DNA of 64,000 nt from contig OZ024740.1 in NCBI GenBank assembly GCA_964016885.1, forward strand, positions 124,868,001 to 124,932,000, read 5' to 3'. Within the stretch, counting starts at the first letter, position 1, and every line of letters starts with the position of its first letter. The position numbers were made by a program, and so were the translations under genes. Source of the DNA: Eledone cirrhosa (taxonomy: Eukaryota). The notes under the pieces were generated by a model. That model saw only the letters and a program-made list of their open reading frames with translations. It was not told the DNA's origin and ran no database searches. Positions 2,328 through 62,720 of this stretch are shown piece by piece.

Positions 2328-2618
2328 TACGTTGGTACCACAAAACATCCAGCCCACTCTGTAAAGTGGTCGTGTAGGTGTCACGACGAAATGCACCCAG
2401 CTCACACTATAAAGTGGTCGTGTAAAAGACATGGTAAAATGCAACCAGCATACGCTGTAAATGTGGTTGGCACTAGGAAGGGCATCCAGCCATAGAAAAA
2501 TACGTCCTATATGAGTGAGGCATGGTTACCTGACCCAACTTGCCTCTAAATGGGACAAACCCATCTAACCCATGCTAACAGGGAAGATGGACGTTAAACG
2601 ATAATGATGATGATGACG

Positions 2619-2620
<2 letters not shown>
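2328..2620 (+). mobile_element. RTE-family 3' UTR fragment
   Basis: ~59-bp tandem units, AGGAAGGGCATCCAGCC and GGACGTTAAACGA(TGA)n tail, as at 21940-22335. Confidence 0.75.
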
Positions 2621-2668
<48 letters not shown>

Positions 2669-5600
2669 ATTGTCTTTTACGCCTTTTTCATCTTCCACAT
2701 TTCACTCACAATACATTGATTGGTCCAAAACTAGGCAGTGGTATTGAACATATAACTGCTTGTTTGTGAAGTAAACCTGGTAACAATAGAGTCGTGACTG
2801 TACCAAGCCTTCCTATGACTTTATATTCCTACATGCATTGTACATTATATCATATTATATACATATGTACACAGTAGCTGTTTGTTGAGTGAGCATTACC
2901 TTCATATACATTTAGAAACCATTTATATATATACATATATAGGTATATATATATATATTACATTTATAAATAGAATTCATGTATCTCAGGGATATACACA
3001 GCTACATACACACACACAAGCATTGAGTTTAGGTATAGAGGAAATATTTACACTCATTTTAGTTTTTTTTTTTCTTTTTCCCAATATATAAACATACTAT
3101 ATTTAATCATAAACCGCATTAACCAGATTATAATGTACAGCACACTCTGTTTCAATGCCCATGGTATGCCACAGTTCTAGTCATAAGGCATCTGTTCCAA
3201 TAATTTATGTAAATATCCGATTTTGAATCAGTCAACTGATGCTTGAAAGAAATAGAGGCAAATAAAAGTAAAATATAAAATGCTATACAGATCTTACAAG
3301 GGCTTACAAAAAATAAAAAAATATAGTTTTTGGTGAAAAAAAAATCATTGATTTAGGTTGAATGATGTCATAGAAATGTCATTGATCTGTATTCTTGAAC
3401 AATATTTATGCTAAACTTCCCAATACATTATTGCATTTAGTTTAACCAGTCTCAGTCTTTTAGGAAGTTTATCTTATTTATGCCTCAAGTTGAGAAGTAA
3501 GGGATTCCCAAAGAAAATGTTTACAATAAATTATATATACTTTTGCTGTTTTTATTTCTCATTTTCTTCTACATCCAAATTCTGGATAATCTCATTGGAA
3601 TGCAGATTTTTTAGAAATGAAATTATATGTTTTTCTTTGGTGTCAATTGCAATCTCATGAGACACCAGGAAATTCAATTCTATACTCTCAATTAGTTTTT
3701 ATGTGTGTGTGTGAGGGGGGGGGGGGATATAAAAGACTTGTTTTCAGATATATCAAAGATTAAACTAATATGCTATCATATTACTGTTCTCTGTGTCATT
3801 TTACACATATATATATATATAATTGTTGCAGATGTTATTCTCATACACCCATGCTAGCATGGTTTCGATGGATCTATATAGACCAAGTCAGCACTGAAGG
3901 GGAGCCACTGATCTCCCAAACAGGCCACAGACCTATGCATTTATGTATGGTCTCACTTTTCATCAAGTGATCAAAAGAGGTTGTCATGCCTTTGACACAA
4001 CTGAGGGTCCTCCCAACACTTTGTTTGGCAACATTTCTATGACTGGATGCCTGTCCAATCACCAACCACTTTAGTGTCTAATGCTTTTTATGTCTTAAAT
4101 AGGATTGCACTGCTGTCATGGTAAAATTCAACCAGTACATTGAGTGAAGTTGTTGGTTTCAGGAAGTAATCAGGGCTTAGAAATCATGCTATAAATGGAA
4201 ACTATGAGTAAGCTATAGTTCTCTGATCCATCTAAGAGGTCAATAACTACAAATAAAAACTGACTCAGGCCATAATAACTCATCTAGCATGGGAAAGATG
4301 ATGTAAAATGTTGATGATATTGATGGTGCTAGAACTTAAAACCAATAGATGTTTTGGTGTTGATACTGATACATTGATTTTATGATCATCATATAATATT
4401 TTTTTAATTATTATTGATGTTTATTCTTGATATGCAGGTGGATTGGCAGTATTGGTTGAGCATCTGATAACGTTCTTTGCAGTATAGAGTTATGGCTCTT
4501 TACATTCTGAGTTCAAATCCTGCCATGGTTAGTGTTGTCTTTCATCCATATGGGGGGTGGGGGATAGGGTAAAGTACCCATAATATACTCTTCATCCAAA
4601 ATTGTAGGCTCTGGGTCTAAATCAGAAACCAGTATCGATATTTACTCTTGATTCTATTTCATACATCTTTTAGGAGGTTTGATATTCTGAGTAGCTAGTG
4701 TTACTAAGAAATGTCCCTTGTGAGGATGTATTTGTTCATTTTTTTAGGAAAAATACCAAAAAACATTAGTGACTTTAAACAAATTATTACTAGCATATAT
4801 TTTTAATAAAAATATGTTGATTCAGAAAAGCACTCACATATCTTTCATTTTATATTTCCAGCTGGTTATCTTAGAGAAATATGTTTTCATTTCAAAATCA
4901 TTAATAAGAAAGGAGGAAGTGACAACAAAAATAAAAATAAACAAGTATTAGTAACAAATATGTATATTTGTGAGAAATAGGATGTGCGCTTATAAATGTG
5001 TGCATAGATATTTGTGAGTATGTGCCTGTATAATTGAATGCATAATTATGTGTAGGTGCATACAATTTCATATGTGTTTGGGTGTATGAGAATAACATCT
5101 GCAACAGCAATAGCAACTAGGAAGACATCATATAGTCCCTTGCTGTGCTTGAAATAGACATCATTGTATCATCTCCCACTGTAGTAACAAGATTAGTAGT
5201 CATGTTACTAAAACATACGTGGCGATTGTGGTAACAAAGGAAGTAGCAGAAATATCAATGTCTCCAAAAAAAAAACACACACACACACAAAATAAACAAT
5301 AGCAGTGAGAGCTCAATGAAAAAACCTCTACATGGTTATTTTATCTGCTAGAAATAGCAACGAAATCCTCCTCAATTTACACCCTTATGTTATTCTGCTA
5401 AGAATATAAATGAAATCTTCAAATCACATACTAACATCTTAAAATAGAAAGCATATTTGATATATGTGATGCTAGATATAATGCGTCTTAAATGAACAAC
5501 AAGATGGTTATATCTGAAACAACTTTAATCACACGTGTGATTGATCAGAACTTATACAGTGATAAATAATATCAATAAGATGTCTTGTGCAAATGTAAAA

Positions 5601-10298: not shown

Positions 10299-10365
<67 letters not shown>

Positions 10366-10368
<3 letters not shown>

Positions 10369-10416
10369 TATGTATGTATACGTACATACATATATGTATA
10401 CAGACGTACAGTATCA

Positions 10417-10454
<38 letters not shown>

Positions 10455-10946
10455 TACATACAGGTACACATACATATATGTACGTATCAGTTTAGCGGAC
10501 GTTTATTATAACACCCGTTTTTGTCCGTTTGTAAACAAACGGACAGCCTGTATTTATGCCGTACGGTGTTAAGGCAACCACGTCAGTTTTTTGTTCAACA
10601 CTGACACAAGAACGATGTACTAGTTTCAAGCTTCTTAGCTATCATCAGCACCGTATACCCTTCTGCCAGATGGTTGAACGTTCGAAAGTATCTACTTTCC
10701 TTATGAAAATTAACGGCTGAACAGCCTAATTTGCATATCGAGTGAGTTCAGTCGGCCAGGCGCACCGAAAACGATAAGTTGTAATAAAATGAAAACGAAA
10801 TTTCATTTCTCACTCTTAGTACGGCACTTACTTAAATGTAAGTATGTATGTATACGTACATACATATATGTATACAGACGTACAGTAGCATGCATATATA
10901 TATATATATATATACATATATACATACAGGTACACATACATATATG
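10366..10946 (-). mobile_element. Hammerhead-bearing non-coding repeat (retrozyme-like), diverged subfamily, ~1.2 units of ~474 bp
   Basis: AGTATGTATGTATACGTACATACATATATGTATACAGACGTACAGT recurs at 10367 and 10841. The unit is homologous along its length to the 420-bp units and contains an HHR. Confidence 0.8.
10612..10654 (-). ncRNA. Minimal type I hammerhead ribozyme
   Basis: Minus strand: ACGGUG-CUGAUGA-U-AGCU(AAGA)AGCU-U-GAAA-CUAGU-A-CAUCGU. Stem I 6 bp, canonical core, palindromic stem III ACUAGU, GUA cleavage triplet. Confidence 0.88.
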
Positions 10947-12023
10947 GAAAGCATCCAGCAGATAGCTAATTCCATACACCAGAGTATAACTGTAACTATC
11001 GACTTCCCTTCCAAACACCCTAACAATAGACTACCTGTATTAGACACAGAACTCTGGATTAACACTATAGACGAGAGAGCCCAAATTCTCCACTCACACT
11101 ATGCTAAACCCATGGCCTCCAAATACCTGATACTCAAAAACTCAGCAATGTCCAGTAGTGCTAAGTTTAATATCCTGATCGCAGATTTGGTACGAGTGAT
11201 GAAGAATGTGTCCCGCATGTGCGACCCAACAGAAATGGAAAGACACATCCAACACTTCATCAACCGCATGCAGTTCTCTGGCTACAACCAAAGAGACAGA
11301 GTCAGAGTATACGAAGGAGCCATTGAAAAGTATAAGACCCTCATAGAACTGGACATGAAAGGAATTTGCCCATTATACAGGAGCAAATCAGAGAATAGCT
11401 TAGATAGGGCTAGACATAAGATAGGGAAAGCCACATCATGGTACGACAACCAGAGATACCAGAGTGTCATGTTTGTGGACGCCACCCCTGGAGGGAAATT
11501 AGCTAACCAGTGTAGAAAGGCCCTGAGAAGGACCCACTTAAAAATAAAGGTGGTAGAAAAGCCAGGAACCACCATAAAATCCCTGATCAGCAAAACCTAC
11601 CCTTTTAAGAAAACCCACTGTACCAATAGGAAATGTATCATATGTAAGGTGAACCCCCCGATAAACTGTAAAACTAGAAACGTAGTCTATAGCATAAGAT
11701 GTACAGAGGGTACTTGCAGAAACATGACAACAACATACATAGGTGAGACAGCTCGTAGCATAGGTGAAAGGATAGACGAACACTGGGGGGAACTAAAAGG
11801 ACGAAAATGCGGGTCAGTACTATACGAACATGCTAGACAACAACATGACGGTAACATAGACAACATAGAAATTAGAATAATATATAAACATAGAAATGAC
11901 CCAGCAGATAGGCAAATCAGAGAGGCCAGTGAAATAGAAATTAGAAGACCAAAGCTAAACAGAAAGAATGAGTGGAATAACAACAACACCCAAACAAACA
12001 ACACTGACCTAAGAGAAGTATAA
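10944..12023 (+). CDS. 5'-truncated Penelope-like element ORF: RT thumb/linker plus C-terminal GIY-YIG endonuclease (possibly Naiad-like)
   Basis: LPVLD, HYAKPMAS, RMQFSGY, Cys-rich linker, VVYSIRC..C..TYIGETARSIGERIDEH, H..H, RQIREA, PKLNRKNEW. Open for ~359 codons. Confidence 0.9.
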   Translation: MESIQQIANSIHQSITVTIDFPSKHPNNRLPVLDTELWINTIDERAQILHSHYAKPMASKYLILKNSAMSSSAKFNILIADLVRVMKNVSRMCDPTEMERHIQHFINRMQFSGYNQRDRVRVYEGAIEKYKTLIELDMKGICPLYRSKSENSLDRARHKIGKATSWYDNQRYQSVMFVDATPGGKLANQCRKALRRTHLKIKVVEKPGTTIKSLISKTYPFKKTHCTNRKCIICKVNPPINCKTRNVVYSIRCTEGTCRNMTTTYIGETARSIGERIDEHWGELKGRKCGSVLYEHARQQHDGNIDNIEIRIIYKHRNDPADRQIREASEIEIRRPKLNRKNEWNNNNTQTNNTDLREV

Positions 12024-12588
12024 ATAAGTAAATAAAATAAGATAAATAAATACATACACAAGCACAATAACAACAAGCACATAAACACACACTAGTCACC
12101 CAGCAAACATAACACTATACACACTAGTCACACAGCAAACATAACACTATACACACACGCAAACGCATGCGCAAAGAAGACAAAATAAAATAAACAAACA
12201 AGCAAATAAATAAATAAATATATAGACAGACTGAATAAAAAATGGCGTAGACATACAACACAACAGGAGGAAAATATAACACCACTGACGATGTTGCAGA
12301 TGTGCAAATAAAGATTTATGTAAATTATGTAAACTATATATATGTGTTTGTGTCTATATTGTATCTGTATTATTTCTGACCGTCGGTCAGTCAATGGCAA
12401 CATTGAGGACCGAGTAAGCTAGATTACGGATATAAAAGACAGCGAGAAGCGAAAACCAACCAAACAGTGAGTGTGTTCTGTTATTAATTCTGGCAATATT
12501 ACACAAATATGACCCTCCCCAAGTATAACAATATTTATTTCGACACACGATTTCATATAAAAAACCTCGCTAAATTAATTCATCGCCG

Positions 12589-12590
<2 letters not shown>
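10944..12590 (+). mobile_element. Penelope-like element (ORF plus 3' UTR ending in (TA)n)
   Basis: GIY-YIG ORF. The 3' UTR 12230-12590 is homologous to a second copy at 50978-51295. Confidence 0.85.
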
Positions 12591-12630
<40 letters not shown>

Positions 12631-12893
12631 GGAAAAAATGAAACGATATTTCATTTCCCACGCTTAGTACGGCTGTTACTTAAATATAAGTATGTACACG
12701 TACATACATATATGTATACCGACGTACAGTAGTATGTATATATATATATACATACATGCACAGATATATATATGCACATATGGATTCACAGAACATTTAT
12801 TATAATGCTCGGTGTGTTTGTAAACAAACATCCCGTATTAAGCCGTAGTGTCTAGCAACCACCGTTGCTCGTTTGTTCAACACTGACAAAGGA

Positions 12894-12936
12894 ACGCTGT
12901 ACTAGTTTCAAGCTTGTTAGCTATCGTCAGCAACGT
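12894..12936 (-). ncRNA. Minimal type I hammerhead ribozyme
   Basis: ACGUUG-CUGACGA-U-AGCU(AACA)AGCU-U-GAAA-CUAGU-A-CAGCGU on the minus strand. Confidence 0.88.
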
Positions 12937-13450
12937 ATACCTTCCTGCCAGATTGTTGAACGTATATACTTACCTTATGCATATTAACGGCTGAATAGCC
13001 CAATTTGCATATCGAGTGGGTTAATCGGCCGGGTGCACCGAAAACGATAAACGGAAAAAATGAAACGATATTTCATTTCCCAGTGTTGAACAAACGAGCA
13101 ACGGTAGTTGCTAGACACTACGGCTTAATACGGGATGTTTGTTTACAAACACACCGAGCATTATAATAATGTTCGGTGAATCCATACGTGCATATATATA
13201 TGTGTGCATGTATGTATATATATATATACATACTACTGTACGTCGGTATACATATATGTATGTACGTGTACATACTTATATTTAAGTAACAGCCGTACTA
13301 AGAGTGGGAAATGAAATATCGTTTCATTTTTTCCGTTTATCGTTTTCGGTGCACCCGGCCGATTAACCCACTCGATATGCAAATTGGGCTATTCAGCAGT
13401 TAATATGCATAAGGTAAGTATATACGTTCAACAATCTGGCAGGAAGGTAT

Positions 13451-13493
13451 ACGTTGCTGACGATAGCTAACAAGCTTGAAACTAGTACAGCGT
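13451..13493 (+). ncRNA. Minimal type I hammerhead ribozyme
   Basis: ACGTTG CTGACGA T AGCT AACA AGCT T GAAA CTAGT A CAGCGT. Confidence 0.88.
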
Positions 13494-13696
13494 TCCTTTG
13501 TCAGTGTTGAACAAACGAGCAACGGTGGTTGCTAGGCACTACGGCTTAATACGGGATGTTTGTTTACAAACACACCGAGCATTATAATAAATGTTCGGCG
13601 AATCCATACGTGCATATATATATGTGTGCATGTATGTATATATATATATACATACTACTGTACGTCGGTATACATATATGTATGTACGTGTACATA

Positions 13697-13776
<80 letters not shown>

Positions 13777-14052: not shown

Positions 14053-14085
<33 letters not shown>

Positions 14086-14282
14086 GGATACTATTTATGG
14101 TTATGTATATACTAAAACTTTTTATAGTTATATATATTTTCAACCCTGAACAGTGAAGGTCAGTAATTAATTACTACCTTATTACCATTAAGATAAATAG
14201 CTCAATGTAATAACATCAGTTGTTCTACAGTGAAGTTATATAGAATTCACAAGAATCAAAGCTATGTTCAAAGCATTTATTA

Positions 14283-14327
14283 ACTTACAATTGTTTCATC
14301 CAAACCTAGGTTTGGAGTCTTCGGAGC
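14283..14327 (-). ncRNA. Type I hammerhead ribozyme, variant core CCGAAGA
   Basis: GCU-CCGAAGA-C-UCCAAAC(CUAG)GUUUGGA-U-GAAA-CAAUUGU-A-AGU, in the PLE 3' terminal region and in sense orientation. Confidence 0.7.
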
Positions 14328-15889
14328 ATTTTCCAATGTTTGTACACATGATTGATCTCCTTTCTAACGCAAGAGACATACAGATACATATGTATATATT
14401 GATGTACAGTGGACTGACATATATTATATTATATTACTTCCGTATAGCAATTCAAATTCAAAGTCAAGATCAATATCAAAATTACAACAAAATTAAAATT
14501 GAAACAAAATTAAAATACATTCGGTAGTTAACATAGATAATGCAAGAGTATAGTTTATTAGTCAGATGTAGTAGTTATTGTATGCGTTAGTTATGTGTGT
14601 CTCACTTATATATGATTATTGTGTGGCAGGGTGTTACATGTAATACAAGCACTTTATGTGGGTAAGCAAGAGTATTATGGAGGTTGCAGTGGTAAGGTAT
14701 TTTTTGTATATGATAAATAAGTATGTGCGCAAAAAAATAGAAATAGAAAGGAGAAGCAAAAGAGAGTTATGGTTTTCGTATCCACCACCATTTTTACATT
14801 CAGGAAATGTAATATATTGTATATACATCCATCACATAATTAACGATGATTCCGTATTGGATGTTTGATGCATTAAATTAAATTATTTTAGCTTATTGTG
14901 GCTCAGTGTTCTTTTATCCAATTTTATAGGGTAAGATTGTTTCTGTTGCGAGAATTTACATCGGTTTATTATCCAGAATTATGTGTGTAATTAATGCGTA
15001 AGGGGAGGTAACTAGCTGATTTTCATAACTAAATTATTGTTCTAACATACATTATAAGGTGTCTCAATTGAGTCCCTTCTATAGACGGTTATATATTTAT
15101 ATCCAGTTTCCAATTTTAAACACAGTCTACTCTATCATGATGTACTAAAGGTTTCAAAAAGTATGATTACTCCCTATCATAGAGTGCTACAACTGGATAT
15201 TCCATACAAAGAGCCACATCTTTATATCAAAGTTCCCTGCAAATGTAGTCTACTCACAGAACATGTCAGGTGACCTATTAGTACTATGTCTACATAACCC
15301 CTGGTAAGTTCTGGAGCAGCGTATGGCTGTCTGCATGGCAAATCCAAATATATCTCTATGGCAGACAAAAACATCCCTCATTTACAATGTCATTAATGTA
15401 TCCATCAAGTTGTATTTGCATATATAACTCACTTCCCATTCATACACAATTCATTTCACTCAACATATAGGTTATACAGATCTCTTATGTTAATAAATTA
15501 ATCTTATATATATCCAATGTTATCACTCCATACATACAAATACATTTGCATAAGTAATTCATTGTCGAATCTGGTGTTTAAAGCTTACATAGACTGTATT
15601 GCCTAATTATAATTATATGTGATACCCCATGAACACCCACCCCTAGTATAACCACCGTCAACTACTATATAATTATAAGCAGTTGAAAGTAATTACCCCA
15701 AAAGTAGGTGCCCATGGGGATATTTCTAGGGTGTAAAGTTATAGACAGATGGAATGATTTGTGTTGAGATAGGGTGGATCAGAGAGTGTGGAGTTGTGGT
15801 GTAAGGTGTGCCCTTGAGGTGTAGTGTTAGAAGTGGTGATGGGTTCAAGTCTGACATTGTTATATATTGGTTTTAAAGTTTTGGAAGGA

Positions 15890-17175
15890 GTGTCGGAAGC
15901 GGTGCTGGCAAGACGCAAACACTTTCGATTTTTTATTAAGGAGGTTATGGTTTGAGAAGATTATAGTATGGGTCTCTATTAGACAGAGGTTGCAGAATTT
16001 ATTAGGTGGTTTGTACGATTCCGCCTTACCTATCACTTCCCATTAGGTGTATAAGCTCTATTTTTAGTTTTTAGATAGTGTATGTAGCTAGATAGTGATG
16101 TGGATTTGGCTAGACTGTGTTTTTTGAAAGAATGGAGGTGCGAATTGTATCTGGTTTTGAAGTTCGAAGTAGAGCCTATATAGGTTTCAGAGGATTTGCT
16201 AGTTATGACGGTGCATGAGTATATGATGTCCTTGATGAAGCAGTTTTTATCTAAAGGGCAGGTTCTATTAGATCTACAGTTACAATTATTTTGGATGTTA
16301 ACCTGCCAGTTATTATGTTGTGTAGAAGTCTGGTTGCTAGTTATTGCATTATGGCTGTGGGGGTTGTCGCTCCCAGCGTTATTGCTTACACTAGTGTTAT
16401 TACTATTATTACTATTGATATCAGGGTTTGTAGATATAACGTTGTTTAGAAGGTTTACCTCCTGCCGTGTTTTAGTTTGTTGGAAGTAAGTATTAATTTT
16501 TCTTTTATTGCTACTAGCTATGTGGTATGCTATGTTAGGCGTGTTAGAGTAGGAGATTTTAATTGTGTTTTTGTTTATAAGACTATGGTACTTGTGGCCA
16601 GATGGGAAGTTTTTATCCAAAAGTGAGAAGAAAGCCTTAGATAGGTTGGTAGAGACGTTTAGATTGAAAGGTGGGTTGAAAAATGTATTATTTCTTCTTC
16701 CATTTTTGTTTTTTATGCCTGATGCGATGCTTCCATTTATCGTATTTTGGTGACTTCTGTGGTGTGGGTTACGTTTGTTGCCATCCTTCGTACTAGTGTG
16801 TGTGTGGTTATTACTCTTATTACTATTTTTCCTCATGGACATATTGTGTGAAATAATGTTGTAACTATGTGTTTTTGTAGGTAGGAACTCGATCTCATTA
16901 TTATGGTCTGATCTAGCTAATGTCTGATTATAATATTGTGAGTTTTTGCTAAATATGTTTTCGTCATAAGATAGATTAGAGATTCTATTGGATATTCCCT
17001 TAGAGATAGAGTTTAATATTGATCTAGGATGGTTAGACTTGGTGTCTACGTAAATCAGTTTTCGTTAGGTTTATGGAATGGTGTATATATCCTAGAGTCT
17101 AGGTAGAGGGTGGCATCTAGGAAGTTAACGTTTTTAGTGTTTTTGTCTATGGTGATACTTGGGTTATAGTTTTTG
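15890..17175 (-). pseudogene. PLE RT-thumb/GIY-YIG ORF, disrupted
   Basis: ORFs 16033-16842 and part of 17055-17465, joined across stops and frameshifts. Confidence 0.85.
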
Positions 17176-17209
17176 AGGAGGTCAATCATGTGTACAAACA
17201 TTGAAAAAT

Positions 17210-17254
17210 GCTCCGTAGATACCAAGCCTAGGTTTGGATGAAACAATTGTAAGT
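17210..17254 (+). ncRNA. Hammerhead copy in the inverted arm, core mutated (CCGTAGA)
   Basis: Same sequence as 14283-14327, with an A6>U change and stem II mismatches. Confidence 0.55.
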
Positions 17255-17320
17255 TAATAAATGCTTTGAACATAGCTTTGATTCTTGTGAATTCTATATA
17301 TATGTATATACAAGCACTTT

Positions 17321-34028: not shown

Positions 34029-34084
<56 letters not shown>

Positions 34085-34345
34085 GGAAAAAATGAAACCA
34101 AATTTCATTTCCCACTCTTAGTACGGCTGTTACTTAAATATAACTATGTACACGTACATAGATATATGTATACAGACGTACAGTAGTATGTATATATATA
34201 TACATACATGCACACATATATATATGTACGTATGGATTCACCGAACATTTATTATAATGCTCGGTGTGTTTGTAAACAAACATCCCGTATTAAGCCGTAA
34301 TGTCCAGCAACCATCGTTGCTCGTTTGTTCAACACTGACAAAGGA

Positions 34346-34388
34346 ACGCTGTACTAGTTTCAAGCTTATTAGCTATCGTCAGCAACGT
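34346..34388 (-). ncRNA. Minimal type I hammerhead ribozyme
   Basis: Reverse complement of ACGTTG CTGACGA TAGCTAATAAGCTT GAAA CTAGT A CAGCGT. Confidence 0.88.
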
Positions 34389-34766
34389 ATACCTTCTTGC
34401 CAGATTGTTGAACGTATATACTTACCTTATGCATATTAACGGCTGAGCAGCCCAATTTGCATATCGAGTGGGTTAATCGGCCGGGTGCACCGAAAACGAT
34501 AAACGGAAAAAATGAAATCAAATTTCATTTCCCACTCTTAGTACGGCTGTTACTTAAATATAAGTATGTACACGTACATACATATATGTATACAGACGTA
34601 CAGTAGTATGTATATATATATACATACATGTGTGCATACATATATATACATACATGCGTTTTCGGTGCACCCGGCCGATTAACCCACTCGATATGCAAAT
34701 TGGGCTGCTCAGCCGTTAATATGCATAAGGTAAGTATATACGTTCAACAATCTGGCAGGAAGGTAT

Positions 34767-34809
34767 ACGTTGCTGACGATAGCTAATAAGCTTGAAACTA
34801 GTACAGCGT
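34767..34809 (+). ncRNA. Minimal type I hammerhead ribozyme
   Basis: Intact CTGACGA/GAAA core, stems I-III, GTA site. Confidence 0.88.
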
Positions 34810-35188
34810 TCCTTTGTCAGTGTTGAACAAACGAGCAACGATTGTTGCTGGACACTACGGCTTAATACGGGATGTTTGTTTACAAACACACCGAGCATTA
34901 TAATAGATGTTCGGTGAATCCATACGTACATATATATATGTGTGCATGTATGTATATATATATATACATACTACTGTACGTCTGTATACATATATGTATG
35001 TACGTGTACATACTTATATTTAAGTAACAGCCGTACTAAGAGTGGGAAATGAAATTTGGTTTCATTTTTTCCGTTTATCGTTTTCGGTGCACCCGGCCGA
35101 TTAACCCACTCGATATACAAATTGCGCTGCTCAGCCGTTAATATGCATAAGGTAAGTATATACGTTCAACAATCTGGCAAGAAGGTAT

Positions 35189-35231
35189 ACGTTGCTGACA
35201 ATAGCTAATAAGCTTGAAACTAGTACAGCGT
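35189..35231 (+). ncRNA. Hammerhead with G8>A core mutation (CTGACAA), probably inactive
   Basis: Same fold, but the substitution breaks the C3-G8 pair. Confidence 0.75.
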
Positions 35232-35608
35232 TCCTTTGTCAGTGTTGAACAAACGAGCAATGATGGTTGCTGGACACTACGGCTTAATACGGGATGTTTG
35301 TTTACAAACACACCGAGCATTATAATAAATGTTCGGTGAATCCATACGTACATATATATATGTGTGCATGTATGTATATATATATACATACTACTGTACG
35401 TCTGTATACATATATGTATGTACGTGTACATAGTTATATTTAAGTAACAGCCGTACTAAGAGTGGGAAATGAAATTTGGTTTCATTTTTTCCGTTTATCG
35501 TTTTCGGTGCACGCGGCCGATTAACCCACTCGATATGCAAATTGGGCTGCTCAGCCGTTAATATGCATAAGGTAAGTATATACGTTCAACAATCTGGCAA
35601 GAAGGTAT

Positions 35609-35651
35609 ACATTGCTGACGATAGCTAATAAGCTTGAAACTAGTACAGCGT
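35609..35651 (+). ncRNA. Minimal type I hammerhead ribozyme (one stem I mismatch)
   Basis: ACATTG CTGACGA..GAAA CTAGT A CAGCGT. Confidence 0.82.
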
Positions 35652-36028
35652 TCCTTTGTCAGTGTTGAACAAACGAGCAACGATGGTTGCTGGTCACTAC
35701 GGCTTAATACGGGATGTTTGTTTACAAACACACCGAGCATTATAATAAATGTTCGGTGAATCCATACGTACATATATATATGTGTGCATGTATGTATATA
35801 TATATACATACTACTGTACGTCTGTATACATATATGTATGTACGTGTACATACTTATATTTAAGTAACAGCCGTACTAAGAGTGGGAAATGAAATTTGGT
35901 TTCATTTTTTCCGTTTATCGTTTTCGGTGCACCCGGCCGATTAACCCACTCGATATGCAAATTGGGCTGCTCAGCCGTTAATATGCATAAGTTAAGTATA
36001 TACGTTCAACAATCTGGCAAGAAGGTAT

Positions 36029-36071
36029 ACGTTGCTGACGATAGCTAATAAGCTTGAAACTAGTACAGCGT
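36029..36071 (+). ncRNA. Minimal type I hammerhead ribozyme
   Basis: Intact core and stems. Confidence 0.88.
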
Positions 36072-36310
36072 TCCTTTGTCAGTGTTGAACAAACGAGCAA
36101 CGATGGTTGCTGGACACTACGGCTTAATACGTGATGTTTGTTTACAAACACACCGAGCATTATAATAAATGTTCGGTGAATCCATACGTACATATATATA
36201 TGTGGGCATGTATGTATATATATATACATACTACTGTACGTCTGTATACATATATGTATGTACGTGTACATACTTGTATATATATATATACATATACATA
36301 TATATACACA

Positions 36311-44959: not shown

Positions 44960-46560
44960 ATTCCTGTCGTTTATTTAATAGGATATCCTTAGATTTCATT
45001 ATTTCAAATAGTTCTTGGGAACATAATCTACATTCATTTCTATTATTTTGATAAGGGGTGGCTCTTTTGAGCACACTCCAGGTCAAATCATATTCTATAT
45101 TCTTATTTTTATAAATATTGATTTTTTTCTGCTAGAGATGTTGTATTAGCCAGTGCGGCATTTTTAAAACTATGCTTGTGGGTATTAAACCTTGTCTTAA
45201 AATTGTTAGAGGTAGCTCCTATATATGAGCAAATAGAATCTTTAGTTTTAACATTACATTTATAGACTATGTTGTTAACAAGACAATTCCCTTTTAATGG
45301 GCAGTTTGCTTTGTTTCTACAGTTACAACCTTTCGTTAATTCTGTATTTGAGGAGATATTATGGTTAATTTGATGTACTGGTGGTATACTTATGGTTTTC
45401 TTACATTTATATGCATTATAGGCACTTATATTTTGTTTTATGTTATTTGTTGTAGAATATGAGAATTTAACTGTAAACCTATTTAAGATTTGATGGTATT
45501 TGTGGTTTGGCGGGAAGTTTTTCTCTAGGATATAAAAAAATTTTTTAGCAATATTATCCTTAATTTGTAAATTAAATGGAGCATTATACCAAGTAACCCG
45601 TCTATTACGGTTTCTATGTTGTTTATTATTTTTATTATTTTTATAGGTTGTATCGTGATTTTTACTAGGAGGATTAATGTTAATGATCTCACCACAACCA
45701 TTTTTAGTTATATTTGTAGATTTAGGTGTTTTATCCTTTTTATTAGGAGTTTTATTATTAATATTTATTAGAGTTGTATGATGAGTAGTTTTTTGAGAGT
45801 TACTATACTTTATATTAGAAGATTTGGTATTTTGGGGTATAGTGTGGGTGGCATTTAGGTGTGTACTTTTCATTTGGTGTTTGTTGGTAATATTAGGTTG
45901 TATGCTTTCAGTATTTTTAGTAGAAGGTATATATTCTAATCTATTTTTGTGGCCACTTCTATCTAGAGCTTCGTTATAGAAGGTCGCATTTTTATCAAAT
46001 ACATCTTGGTTAGAAGAAAGGTTAGAAATTCTAAGTGATATATTATATGCAAGGTTTTTAAGGATAGATTTAGGGTGATTAGATTGTGAGTGTATGTAAT
46101 GTAAGTTTTGGTTTGGTTTATGGTAAGGTTGGTAGATACCCGTAGCTAAATCTAAAGTTATATCTAGGAAATTTACTACTTTACTTGTTTTTTCAAAAGT
46201 AATATTAAGATTATAATAGTCTTTAAGGAAAGTTCTAATATGTTTTTTGTTTTTTTCAATTTCTGAAAGGCTAAGGTTGTTAGAAAGAAGAAGACAGTCA
46301 TCACGATATAAACCAACTTTGAGGTGGGGAAAGGAGGCATTTATGTTGAAAAGGAGGAAGAGGCCCACAAGATCAGTAATTTGGGCGGAATCGCTTGAAC
46401 CCATAGTAATGTCAAATAGATTACTATATGTGTTTCTGGTCCAGTATTCATTCTGAAATTCAATAAGTGTTAGTCTAGCATGTGTAACAATATTAATGTC
46501 ATCCAAAGTTAAGTTAGATCTATTTTTAGCAAATATCAATGCTTTGTTCAGGAGTATAGG
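44960..46560 (-). pseudogene. PLE RT (5'-truncated) plus GIY-YIG endonuclease, frameshifted near the C-terminus
   Basis: FDITMGSSDSAQITDLVG, LYRDD, VNFLDITL, YHKPN..SNHP, WYNAPF, CNCRNKANCPLKGNC, IVYKC..YIGATSNNFKTRF. Confidence 0.92.
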
Positions 46561-46749
46561 TGATATATATGTATGAATATATATGTAGGTAGGTGTATAT
46601 ATGTTTGGGTATTTATATCTGAATATAAAAATACATATATGCGCATGCAAATAAGAATGTAAGATTGTGTGTGTATATATATGTGTGTGTATGTATGTGT
46701 ATATGTGTATATATGCATGTGTGTATATATGTGTGTATGTGTATGTGTG

Positions 46750-46816
<67 letters not shown>

Positions 46817-47075
46817 GTGTGTATGTATGTATGTATATGTGTGTGTGTGTATATATATGTATGTCTCTCTATTTATATGTCTATCTTCGTATCTATGTGG
46901 ATATATGTGTGTGTGCGCATGTATACACATATATGTGTTTATGTGTATATGTGTGTATGTGTATATATGTGTGTGTGCACACACATGTATATGTGAGTGT
47001 GTATATGTGTGTGTGTATATGTATGTGTATGTATATATATATATATATCTATGTGCGTATATATGTCTATATTCG

Positions 47076-60762: not shown

Positions 60763-62236
60763 TTAGTGAGAAGTGTTTAGACGGGGTCCGTATTTGTTAA
60801 TGAAGTAAGATTCCTTGCTGCTGCGCTGTGTGTGGGTGGCATTATCTTTAAATTTGTAGAGGGGAAAGATTCTGAAGTTGGGATGATTTTGGGCGGCACA
60901 GGTATCAATGTGTTCACTCAGTGGTATTTTCCTGTATTCTCGTATTTTAATTTTGGATCTATGGACAGTCATGCGTTAGCGGAGGCTGTTTTTGGTCTGG
61001 CCTATGTATTGTTCTCGACAACCTGAGCAAGTTAATACATATATTATATTTTCCGATGCACATGTGAAATTGTGTTTTACTATAAAACGTTGTCCTTCTT
61101 TGAAATAGAATTCCGAACCCTCTATTAGGTTGATGCAAATGCCACAGTTGGGTCTATCTCATTTTTTTTACTGTGGGTTTCGTTGTTGTGGTTGGCAGTA
61201 CTTTGGCATGTGTTAGGATGTTTTTCATTGACTTGGATTGTCTTTTGCTCTTTATGATATCGTGTGTTCGTAGGATTTGGTTCATTCTATGGTCCTTTTT
61301 CAACACAGGGATGTTCTGGAGGATGGTGTCAAAGGCCTCATTGTTGAGGGGTTTGTGTGTGGAGATGTATGGAAGAGCTTTTAGTTTCAGTTGATTTACT
61401 TTAGGGTGTGTATGGTCCTGGGTACTGAGTTTTAGGGCACGTTGGATTCCATTGTCAATTAGTGATGCAGGGTAGTCCCTGCCTATGAGTGTGTCCATTA
61501 ATTCTTGTAGCCGTAAGTAGCAGGTGTTTTTATTGGAGACTATAGTACAGATTGTCTTGGCTAAGTTGTAGGGAATATTAATTTTAACGTGTCTAGGGTG
61601 GCAAGAGTTGAAAGGAAGTTATTGCTTGGAGTCTGGGGGCTTGTAGTATATGTCTGTTTCTATTTTTTTGTTATGGATCTTAATGAGGATGTCGAGGAAG
61701 GGGAGTTGTTGATGGCTGTATTCCATCGTGAAGTTAATATTCGTGTTGAGCCCATTTATAAGGGTGTGAAATTCTTTAAGTTTCTCGATGTTTTCGTGCC
61801 AAAGGATGAAGCAGTCATCTAGATATCGCTTCCAGTTCCTTTCAATGTGTAAGTGGAGGGTGTTTCCAAATTTGTTTAGGACTTTAGTGTAGAGGGTGAT
61901 TTCCAGGTATCCCATGACTAGGTTGGCATAAGTGGGGGCTGTTTTCGTTCCCATAGCGGTCCCAGGTTTCTGCCTGTAGGGTTTGTTATTGAAAACGAAG
62001 TAATTGTTCTCCAAGATAAATTTGAGTCCCTCTATCACGAATTCTTTTTTGATGCGTTGTGGGAGTTCATTGTGGAAATTATCCAGCCAGAATTGGATAG
62101 CTTCTATTCCTAGGTTGTGGAGGATGTTGGAGTATGGGTTGACTACATCGAACCTCACTAGTAGGGTTTGTTCAGAAAGTGGCATATTAGGGAGGTGATT
62201 GAGCATATCTAGGTCGTCCCTTATATAGCTTTTGAT
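60763..62236 (-). pseudogene. PLE RT plus GIY-YIG ORF, disrupted
   Basis: ORF pieces 61619-62245, 61154-61498 and 60763-60972, separated by stops and frameshifts. Confidence 0.88.
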
Positions 62237-62720
62237 GTAAAACACAATTTCACATGTGCATCGGAAAATCTAATATATGTATTAACTTGCTCAGGTTGTC
62301 GAGAACAATACATAGACCAGACCAAAAACAGCCTTCGCCAACGCATGACTGTCCATAGATCCCAAATTAAAATACGGGAATACAGAAAATACCACTGAGT
62401 GAACATATTGATACCTGTGCCGCCCAAAATCATCCCAACTTCAGAATCTTTCCCCTCTACAAATTTAAAGATAATGCCACCCACACCCAGCGCAGCAGCA
62501 AGGAATCTTACTTCATTAACAAATACGGACCCCGTCTAAACACTTCTCACTAAGACGAACCCACAACATACACACGTCAACATACATACCTACATCAGCA
62601 CACATCTCTACCCACATATAAACACAATGACATACGTAAACACACATGCTCTATGGGGTAACACAAAAAAATATATGTGTATATATATCTATGTATGTAT
62701 ATGTATGTATGTATATGTAG

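Follow-up and report, generated by a model that had tools for sequence, protein, structure and literature searches.

In a 64,000-nt stretch of Eledone cirrhosa DNA (hereafter the window), a copy of a non-coding hammerhead repeat, unit A, is joined head to head with a truncated Penelope-like element (PLE) of the family PLE-1. We favor, with a probability of roughly 0.55, the reading that this structure arose in one Penelope-type insertion, with different RNAs serving as templates at the two primed ends of a cut (TA)n tract. Analysis of further loci in this genome establishes that unit A inserts with PLE geometry, namely with an inverted same-source arm and with fixed termini in TA. It is from this insertion pattern of the unit's own, more than from the fusion, that we infer that PLE machinery copies unit A.

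The locus and its two elements

The features around the joint are as follows.

10302..10365: (TA)32 tract, the left-hand target, adjoining the unit A 3' end
10366..10946, minus strand: unit A, a hammerhead tandem unit of retrozyme type, non-coding and 5'-truncated
10613..10653, minus strand: type I hammerhead of unit A (core at 10648-10624)
10944..10946: head-to-head joint, an ATG common to unit A and PLE-1 (3-nt microhomology)
10944..12589, plus strand: PLE-1, 5'-truncated, corresponding to positions 2459-4079 of the family majority sequence
10944..12023, plus strand: open PLE-1 ORF remnant with RT thumb, CX4CxxC linker and GIY-YIG domain with CCHH, without the RT catalytic motif
12285..12318, plus strand: pLTR hammerhead of PLE-1, core mutated in the window copy, differing from the unit A hammerhead
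12590..12627: (TA)19, the right-hand target, which also borders a unit B insertion in tail-to-tail arrangement
12628..13706: unit B insertion, a self-inverted head-to-head pair, each 3' end lying in (TA)n

The unit A copy comprises one 471-nt monomer (10366-10836) and ~110 nt of a second. As originally predicted, it is a minus-strand hammerhead repeat with its 3' end at 10366 in (TA)n; this end follows (TA)32 and is canonical, being one of the family's two main termini. The spacer-free join predicted at ~10946 is likewise present and can be refined to a 3-base overlap at 10944-10946, because ATG precedes GAAAGC in all 29 other PLE-1 copies compared (including two truncated 10-120 nt further up, in which the ATG is still present) and unit A also reads ATG there. 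The plus-strand PLE is indeed 5'-truncated and ends in (TA)n; its 3' end at 12589 is the commonest terminus of the family and is followed by (TA)19. Neither unit A nor PLE-1 resumes on the far side of the insertion, so simple nesting is not supported. The unit B insertion that follows is a separate event showing the usual geometry, and a second self-inverted unit B insertion, of 1.4 + 3.9 monomers, occupies 34079-36282. Further PLE families lie on the minus strand of the window at 14083-17300, 45109-46872 and 61154-62269, the first of them with Hydra-like similarity to the family PLE-2 described below (31%).

The assembly does contain the unit A/PLE-1 junction. A joint that is TA-rich on its unit side would fit an artefact of assembly between two low-complexity repeats, but we give that explanation very little weight. 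The PLE side is complex sequence, the 3-nt overlap is of a size also seen at ordinary self-inverted joints, which have overlaps up to 9 nt or short fillers, and a dozen other foreign joints are present on other contigs, each with its own breakpoint. A joint of unit to PLE found in RAD reads (10728 to 11088, 77 reads) was read as a library ligation product and set aside; it lies on a shared AATT-containing word at which many reads end, presumably the site of the library enzyme.

The PLE-1 majority sequence, built from 13 copies, is 4079 nt long, and its ORF (at least 1134 aa) contains an N-rich stretch, DKSG, YVDD, the CX4CxxC linker and GIY-YIG with CCHH, which was identified by eye as two Cys within GIY-YIG and two His. 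By the motifs given in the clade descriptions of Craig et al. 2021 (PMC8557442), among them a CX2-5CxxC linker ahead of the endonuclease, PLE-1 is classed as an EN+ PLE of Neptune/Nematis type. The majority sequence carries its own pLTR hammerhead, and partial tandems and an inverted 5' copy are also present. The family is young, with 99% identity among the 40 best of 1048 candidates. The remnant in the window begins just after YVDD and therefore lacks the RT active site; its ORF is open over 359 codons, as is the same part in 8 of the 27 PLE-1 copies that span it. The open frame had been taken as a sign of a recent event. The frame is indeed open. Of 1079 positions, 11 depart from the family majority, and in the pLTR hammerhead core CG of the majority is changed to AT at 12308-12309; "recent" is a fair description, but this copy is not one of the youngest. 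The nearest named protein to the remnant is a hypothetical protein of Octopus vulgaris (63%), and Pfam and PDB searches with it returned no match. A SINE-like repeat of ~180 nt sits repeatedly inside PLE-1 copies (L042, L043, L047, L049, L187), with short target duplications at sites that start with a similar word.

Unit A has 2890 candidates in the genome search and forms arrays of 465-471 nt monomers in which no ORF of 100 aa is found. Its hammerhead has stem I CGGUG/CAUCG, the core CUGAUGA and GAAA, a 4-bp stem II and a short palindromic helix III, judged against the canonical type I definition as it is set out by Cervera and de la Pena 2014 (PMC4209133), and the cut is predicted after GUA at 10618. 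The core-open hammerhead fold lies within 2.1 kcal/mol of the minimum, and the fold z is -8.0 against 100 shuffles, with a TA hairpin contributing part. The sampled loci hold 208 distinct intact unit hammerhead motifs and show more than ten distinct hammerhead families; among the Rfam matches listed (150 of 379) there was no hammerhead, only TA-hairpin miRNA noise. Monomers within unit A arrays carry identical alleles (470 concordant, 22 discordant), a pattern that would fit copying of one circle. The ends are not LTR-like, and a TSD is unreadable inside (TA)n. With its tandem repeats of a few hundred bases, its lack of protein and a type I hammerhead in each unit, unit A is a putative non-LTR retrozyme. 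Unit B is a sister subfamily with ~77% identity to unit A, and its hammerhead stem I has changes on both sides relative to that of unit A. At one locus (L296:2203-2260; G000:C2:207860100-207864100), the 5' end of a unit B copy is joined straight to telomere-like (TTAGGG)n, with ~90 nt of other sequence between these repeats and the TA run. Additionally, a family W (L076:486-1124; L304-L311) consists of a TA-anchored, tandem, self-inverting unit of ~560 nt with 3291 candidates; a search for the canonical hammerhead core found none in it, and it is perhaps a retrozyme-like repeat without a hammerhead.

Both elements carry type I hammerheads, and Li, Clavereau and Pollet 2026 (bioRxiv 10.64898/2026.07.22.740005), in the part of that preprint dealing with Xenopus, give pLTR homology for 24/57 retrozyme families. 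One could thus imagine unit A as a regular segment of some longer PLE-1 or as a derivative of its pLTR, a proposal that for PLE-1 can be regarded as refuted. The 4079-nt majority is without unit sequence and its hammerhead is different, while all 29 other PLE-1 copies continue upstream of the breakpoint into RT sequence or other flanks. Neither unit A nor unit B is similar to the PLE-1 pLTR at E below 0.05 or to any 3' end in the repeat library that we compiled, and no sampled locus has a PLE ORF followed by the unit hammerhead. By these comparisons unit A is not a part of PLE-1, and no pLTR parent was found for it in the loci sampled, which differs from the pLTR homology just cited.

Insertion geometry of unit A and the PLE families

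A second PLE family, PLE-2, is young, targets (TA)n, has DKT and a CxCX5C linker (L172) and an RWK-like motif, RWR by eye (L164), and lacks CCHH; the motifs defined in the clade descriptions of Craig et al. (PMC8557442) would place it in the Hydra clade. It is barely alignable to PLE-1 (best E 0.19). Near its 3' end (L172:3430-3470 region) nearly all copies have a hammerhead-like motif reading CAGAAGA instead of CUGANGA. The 5' ends of the units and of both PLE families were scored as follows.

Unit A (110 loci, 24 duplicates removed, 86 scored): 50 self-inverted, 14 TA, 12 other DNA without TA, 8 foreign head-to-head, 2 foreign same-sense
PLE-1 (111 loci, 27 at a locus edge and 2 duplicates removed, 82 scored): 51 self-inverted, 16 TA, 10 other DNA without TA, 2 foreign head-to-head, 3 foreign same-sense
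PLE-2 (32 loci, 10 dropped, 22 scored): 13 self-inverted, 4 TA, 2 other DNA, 3 foreign head-to-head, 0 foreign same-sense
Unit B (35 loci, 19 dropped, 16 scored): 9 self-inverted, 4 TA, 3 other DNA, 0 foreign

These tallies draw on the best-scoring 40 loci per search and so favor young copies; the foreign classes were assigned by hand, a small number of short inverted arms were counted under TA or other DNA, and a few loci were possibly merged wrongly. They agree with the earlier observation that other PLEs have an inverted copy of themselves where the window PLE has unit A. For the unit as for the two PLE families, ~60% of insertions have same-source head-to-head arms, and a foreign second arm occurs in a few per cent. 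The 3' ends are equally regular, with 79 of 88 unit A segments and 114 of 129 PLE-1 segments ending at recurring termini no more than 12 nt from a TA run.

The two arms of a self-inverted insertion carry the same diagnostic alleles. Over 38 unit A pairs, 383 comparisons are concordant and 15 discordant (145 discordant expected), PLE-2 gives 29 concordant and 2 discordant (10 expected), and PLE-1 gives 156 concordant and 5 discordant by a hand count that sets aside two TA-junction columns. The arms thus share source alleles, and therefore each insertion builds both arms. Arms are often short (39% are < 300 nt, and the median short arm is 175 nt). Deletion at the 5' joint must be common, because 12/86 unit A and 10/82 PLE-1 5' ends join other DNA without TA. 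Short fold-back fillers copied from adjoining sequence are present at some 5' joints (L026:1186-1270, L166:1864-1881 and the L269 junction), which suggests end-joining with templated synthesis. In two self-inverted PLE-1 insertions (L016, L169) the arms differ at subfamily-diagnostic sites, and these possibly represent two RNAs of one PLE-1 family in one insertion.

Orientation, age and partners of foreign arms

The window fusion has a number of counterparts. A second, independent unit A/PLE-1 head-to-head fusion (L002) has its breakpoint 116 nt further up the PLE, and unit A is fused head to head with PLE-2 at three loci, each with its own breakpoint (L073, L091, L241). Other partners of unit A are an old family that is sister to PLE-1 (L270), two hammerhead-bearing TA-anchored families (L269, L276), one more family (L066) and family W, a second non-coding tandem family (L076). 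Similar fusions occur without the unit, joining PLE-2 to two other repeats (L231, L223) and PLE-1 to a LINE-like 3' end (L166). Three kinds of candidate were rejected: a nested insertion in the inner TA run of a unit (L101), a joint in a rearranged region, with a 98.5% copy of its partner lying 10 kb off (L182), and apparent joints of PLE-1 with its sister family, in which one element was matched by two references.

The main competitor of co-insertion is that two separate insertions entered one (TA)n and that the 5' end of the later one was joined by microhomology after deletion of the spacer and of part of the older element. We regard this as a serious explanation, somewhat less probable than two-ended priming. 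Elements do pile up in TA tracts, as is evident from 62 foreign pairs across a TA spacer and from the third insertion in the window at 12628, and direct joints in same-sense and tail-to-tail orientation exist (L032, L039, L128, L275, L177). Partner families also track neighbour abundance, and a rough hand estimate for this route predicts a unit A fusion in ~0.5% of PLE-1 copies, to be compared with the 1/82 seen. The clearest case is L270, where the unit is 99.3% identical to its nearest copy and the PLE arm is at most 87% identical to its 40 best-scored relatives. A young unit and an old PLE arm imply a sequential origin, and later insertion plus deletion can therefore make such fusions.

Orientation argues against the sequential origin as a general account. 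Curated direct foreign joints (a count that leaves out the window, the dropped L182 and the ambiguous L049) comprise 12 head-to-head, 8 same-sense and 1 tail-to-tail, although ends that face each other across TA are mostly tails (45 tail-tail, 16 head-tail and 1 head-head among the 62 spaced pairs); in the unit-ascertained loci the ratio of foreign head-to-head to same-sense joints is 8 to 2. The chance of at least 12 head-to-head among 20 is 0.001, 0.02 or 0.13 if deletion gives that orientation 25, 35 or 45% of the time. Fisher tests against the TA-spaced baseline (p 0.0003-0.001) were set aside as overstating the contrast, because deletion through a short tail-facing arm turns its neighbour head-on.

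Arm ages also bear on the two-insertion explanation. In the window there is 1 difference in 105 nt between the unit monomers and there are 7 private changes in 1613 nt of the PLE; the corresponding values are 3 in 2082 and 0 in 443 for L073, a pair near zero divergence, and 10 in 666 and 6 in 887 for L241, with poorer agreement for L091. Over these four pairs the match has a borderline p = 0.057 under independent ages. A count of rare changes gave a different impression, with 8 in 345 nt of the window unit against 7 in 1613 nt of the PLE (p = 0.002; nearest unit copy 97%). The same gap at L241 proved to be template-borne, and the private-change count was rejected as an age for units; in the window, though, only 105 nt can be checked in this way. 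Taken together, the head-to-head excess and the matching arm ages favor co-insertion. The original prediction that both ends of one break were primed thus gains from the lack of a spacer, from the lack of nesting, from the second fusion at L002 and from orientation and arm ages, and loses in that L270 shows insertion plus deletion mimicking the same structure.

The original prediction had also offered a template switch by the RT. A plain switch would give a same-sense joint and the joint in the window is head-to-head. A further variant has one cDNA strand changing template, from PLE-1 RNA to a unit RNA of antisense polarity. Antisense templates have been proposed for PLE inversions in the discussion of inverted copies by Arkhipova et al. 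2013 (PMC3846280); rolling-circle RNAs could presumably have both strands. Such a switch would need no canonical sense 3' terminus in (TA)n at the far end of the unit, and that terminus is present here and in other fusions, which leaves this variant very improbable.

A stronger claim took the fusion as direct evidence for copying of the retrozyme by this PLE family. This is not supported, since unit A is joined in the same way to the Hydra-clade PLE at 3 loci and also to four further kinds of repeat, and both PLE families form fusions in which the unit has no part. Within the co-insertion reading, a special case would be that the RT of PLE-1 copied both RNAs and that PLE-1 is the specific mobilizing partner of unit A. 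We consider this special case unlikely. Two PLE-1/unit A fusions (the window and L002) speak for it, as does a self-inverted unit A (L108:2157-2319; G000:C1:155879332-155882791) with a short arm that terminates in the final 60 nt of PLE-1, in the same sense and via CA, as a template switch would leave it. L108 is the best single candidate for the RT of PLE-1 switching onto unit A RNA, but later insertion plus deletion could equally have produced it. At a further locus (L239:2868-2995; G000:C2:269884467-269887902) ~115 nt of unit-type sequence, same-sense and without TA, replaces ~8 nt at the ORF end of a PLE-1 sister, and other copies of that sister family are without the piece. Against the special case, same-sense joints between families also arise without the unit (L007, L032); L007 is a cross-family chimera of this kind, in which PLE-1 is cut in the endonuclease region and is followed by the terminal 26 nt of a tail from another family and then by TA (L007:2279-2305). 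The lack of unit similarity to the PLE-1 pLTR likewise argues against it.

Partner choice points the same way, with PLE-1 being none of the 8 foreign head-to-head partners in the 86 unit-ascertained loci and the Hydra-clade PLE being a partner three times. As PLE-1 makes up 8 of the 66 recognised foreign termini near units, ~1 PLE-1 partner is expected from its neighbour share, and only a strong preference of unit A for PLE-1 is excluded. Shared 3' sequence between unit A and PLE-1, the criterion for a SINE-LINE or MRC1-Chlamys type pair, is absent. No PLE-1/PLE-2 fusion was found among 120 and 41 segments, the foreign-arm rates of unit A (8/86) and PLE-1 (2/82) are not clearly different (p = 0.10), and the natural chimeric sequence used as a query gave no enrichment for fusions.

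Probable two-ended priming and the mobilization of retrozymes

In the preferred reading, the endonuclease would cut both strands of (TA)n and each cut end would prime at the TA-like terminus of an RNA. Both RNAs would usually come from the same source, giving the familiar inverted arm, and sometimes the second RNA would be foreign. In the window a retrozyme-type unit RNA would have been used at the left end and a PLE-1 transcript at the right end, the cDNAs would have stopped early, and the two truncated cDNAs would then have been sealed head to head via the 3-base overlap. We infer that both arms were made in one event, with a PLE protein presumably copying unit A; the head-to-head joint is silent on whether the two RNAs had the same RT. 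Foreign arms appear to come from any TA-targeting RNA that happens to be available, with at least two PLE clades involved.

These features can be compared with known systems. Non-LTR animal retrozymes, as portrayed in the relevant parts of Cervera and de la Pena 2020 (PMC7229834) and Li et al. 2026 (10.64898/2026.07.22.740005), share with our units non-coding tandem organization, a type I hammerhead, low GC and dispersed monomers to multimers. Monomers here (422-471 nt) exceed the 170-400 nt of the former and fall inside the 51-972 nt of the latter. The retrozyme descriptions in these two sources do not report inverted 5' arms, fixed TA termini or fusions, unlike what is seen here. EN+ PLEs, in the structural descriptions of PMC8557442 and PMC3846280, resemble the elements studied here in 5' truncation, an inverted 5' copy, alternative 3' termini, (TA)n targets, microhomology joints and an N-rich ORF stretch, and may have an optional tail besides the inverted 5'-truncated copy. 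The inverted arm in the window differs from theirs in being a different RNA. Where Arkhipova et al. 2013 (PMC3846280) discuss head-to-head structures, they explain them by self-priming on an antisense template, and in their account of the PLE types covered there no cross-mobilization between types was seen. Self-priming cannot give a foreign arm.

Biochemical parts needed for two-ended priming are known from the Poseidon PAc enzyme. In the in vitro results of Frangieh et al. 2024 (PMC11167929), this protein, a predicted dimer, cleaves AT-rich DNA on both strands, extends both of them, and begins reverse transcription at internal positions, which accounts for the tail. This enzyme belongs to another PLE clade, and those results describe no foreign template or two-RNA product. 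Our model also resembles L1 twin priming as outlined in Kojima 2010 (PMC2912911), in which both target ends prime and the cDNAs join by microhomology. For L1, according to that outline, the second primer is internal on the same RNA, which keeps the arms from overlapping, and inversions are seldom seen in trans; in our elements the two arms each extend to the 3' end, a non-coding unit is inverted as often as a PLE, and arms can be foreign. Our literature search, with most subscription papers outside its scope, found neither foreign inverted arms nor retrozyme-PLE fusions described.

Which machinery copies animal retrozymes and how the inverted 5' arm of PLEs arises are both questions that are open in print, and the thousands of young copies of units and PLEs in this genome make both testable by counting. 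In the passages where they treat mobilization, Cervera and de la Pena 2020 (PMC7229834) name PLEs as candidate mobilizers from shared hammerheads and co-existence, and Li et al. 2026 (10.64898/2026.07.22.740005) add co-occurrence and pLTR homology. The unit's own PLE insertion signature is more direct evidence than co-occurrence or pLTR homology. One such joint as that in the window cannot name the mobilizing family, because several families give it and deletion can mimic it. The fusion is likely a recurring by-product of two-ended priming, and it supports PLE mobilization of retrozymes in general. More tentatively, and at odds that we would call rather against it, PLE insertion itself may be a two-RNA reaction in which a dimeric protein primes both (TA)n ends, with the retrozyme as a promiscuous hitchhiker on two deep PLE clades (Neptune/Nematis type and Hydra). 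If foreign arms are made in one event, they show that a second RNA, itself primed, is the source of the inverted arm. Should this two-RNA reading be true, self-priming would be overturned as the origin of the PLE inverted arm, and foreign-arm insertions would constitute a genome-wide record of the RNAs present in a shared insertion complex.
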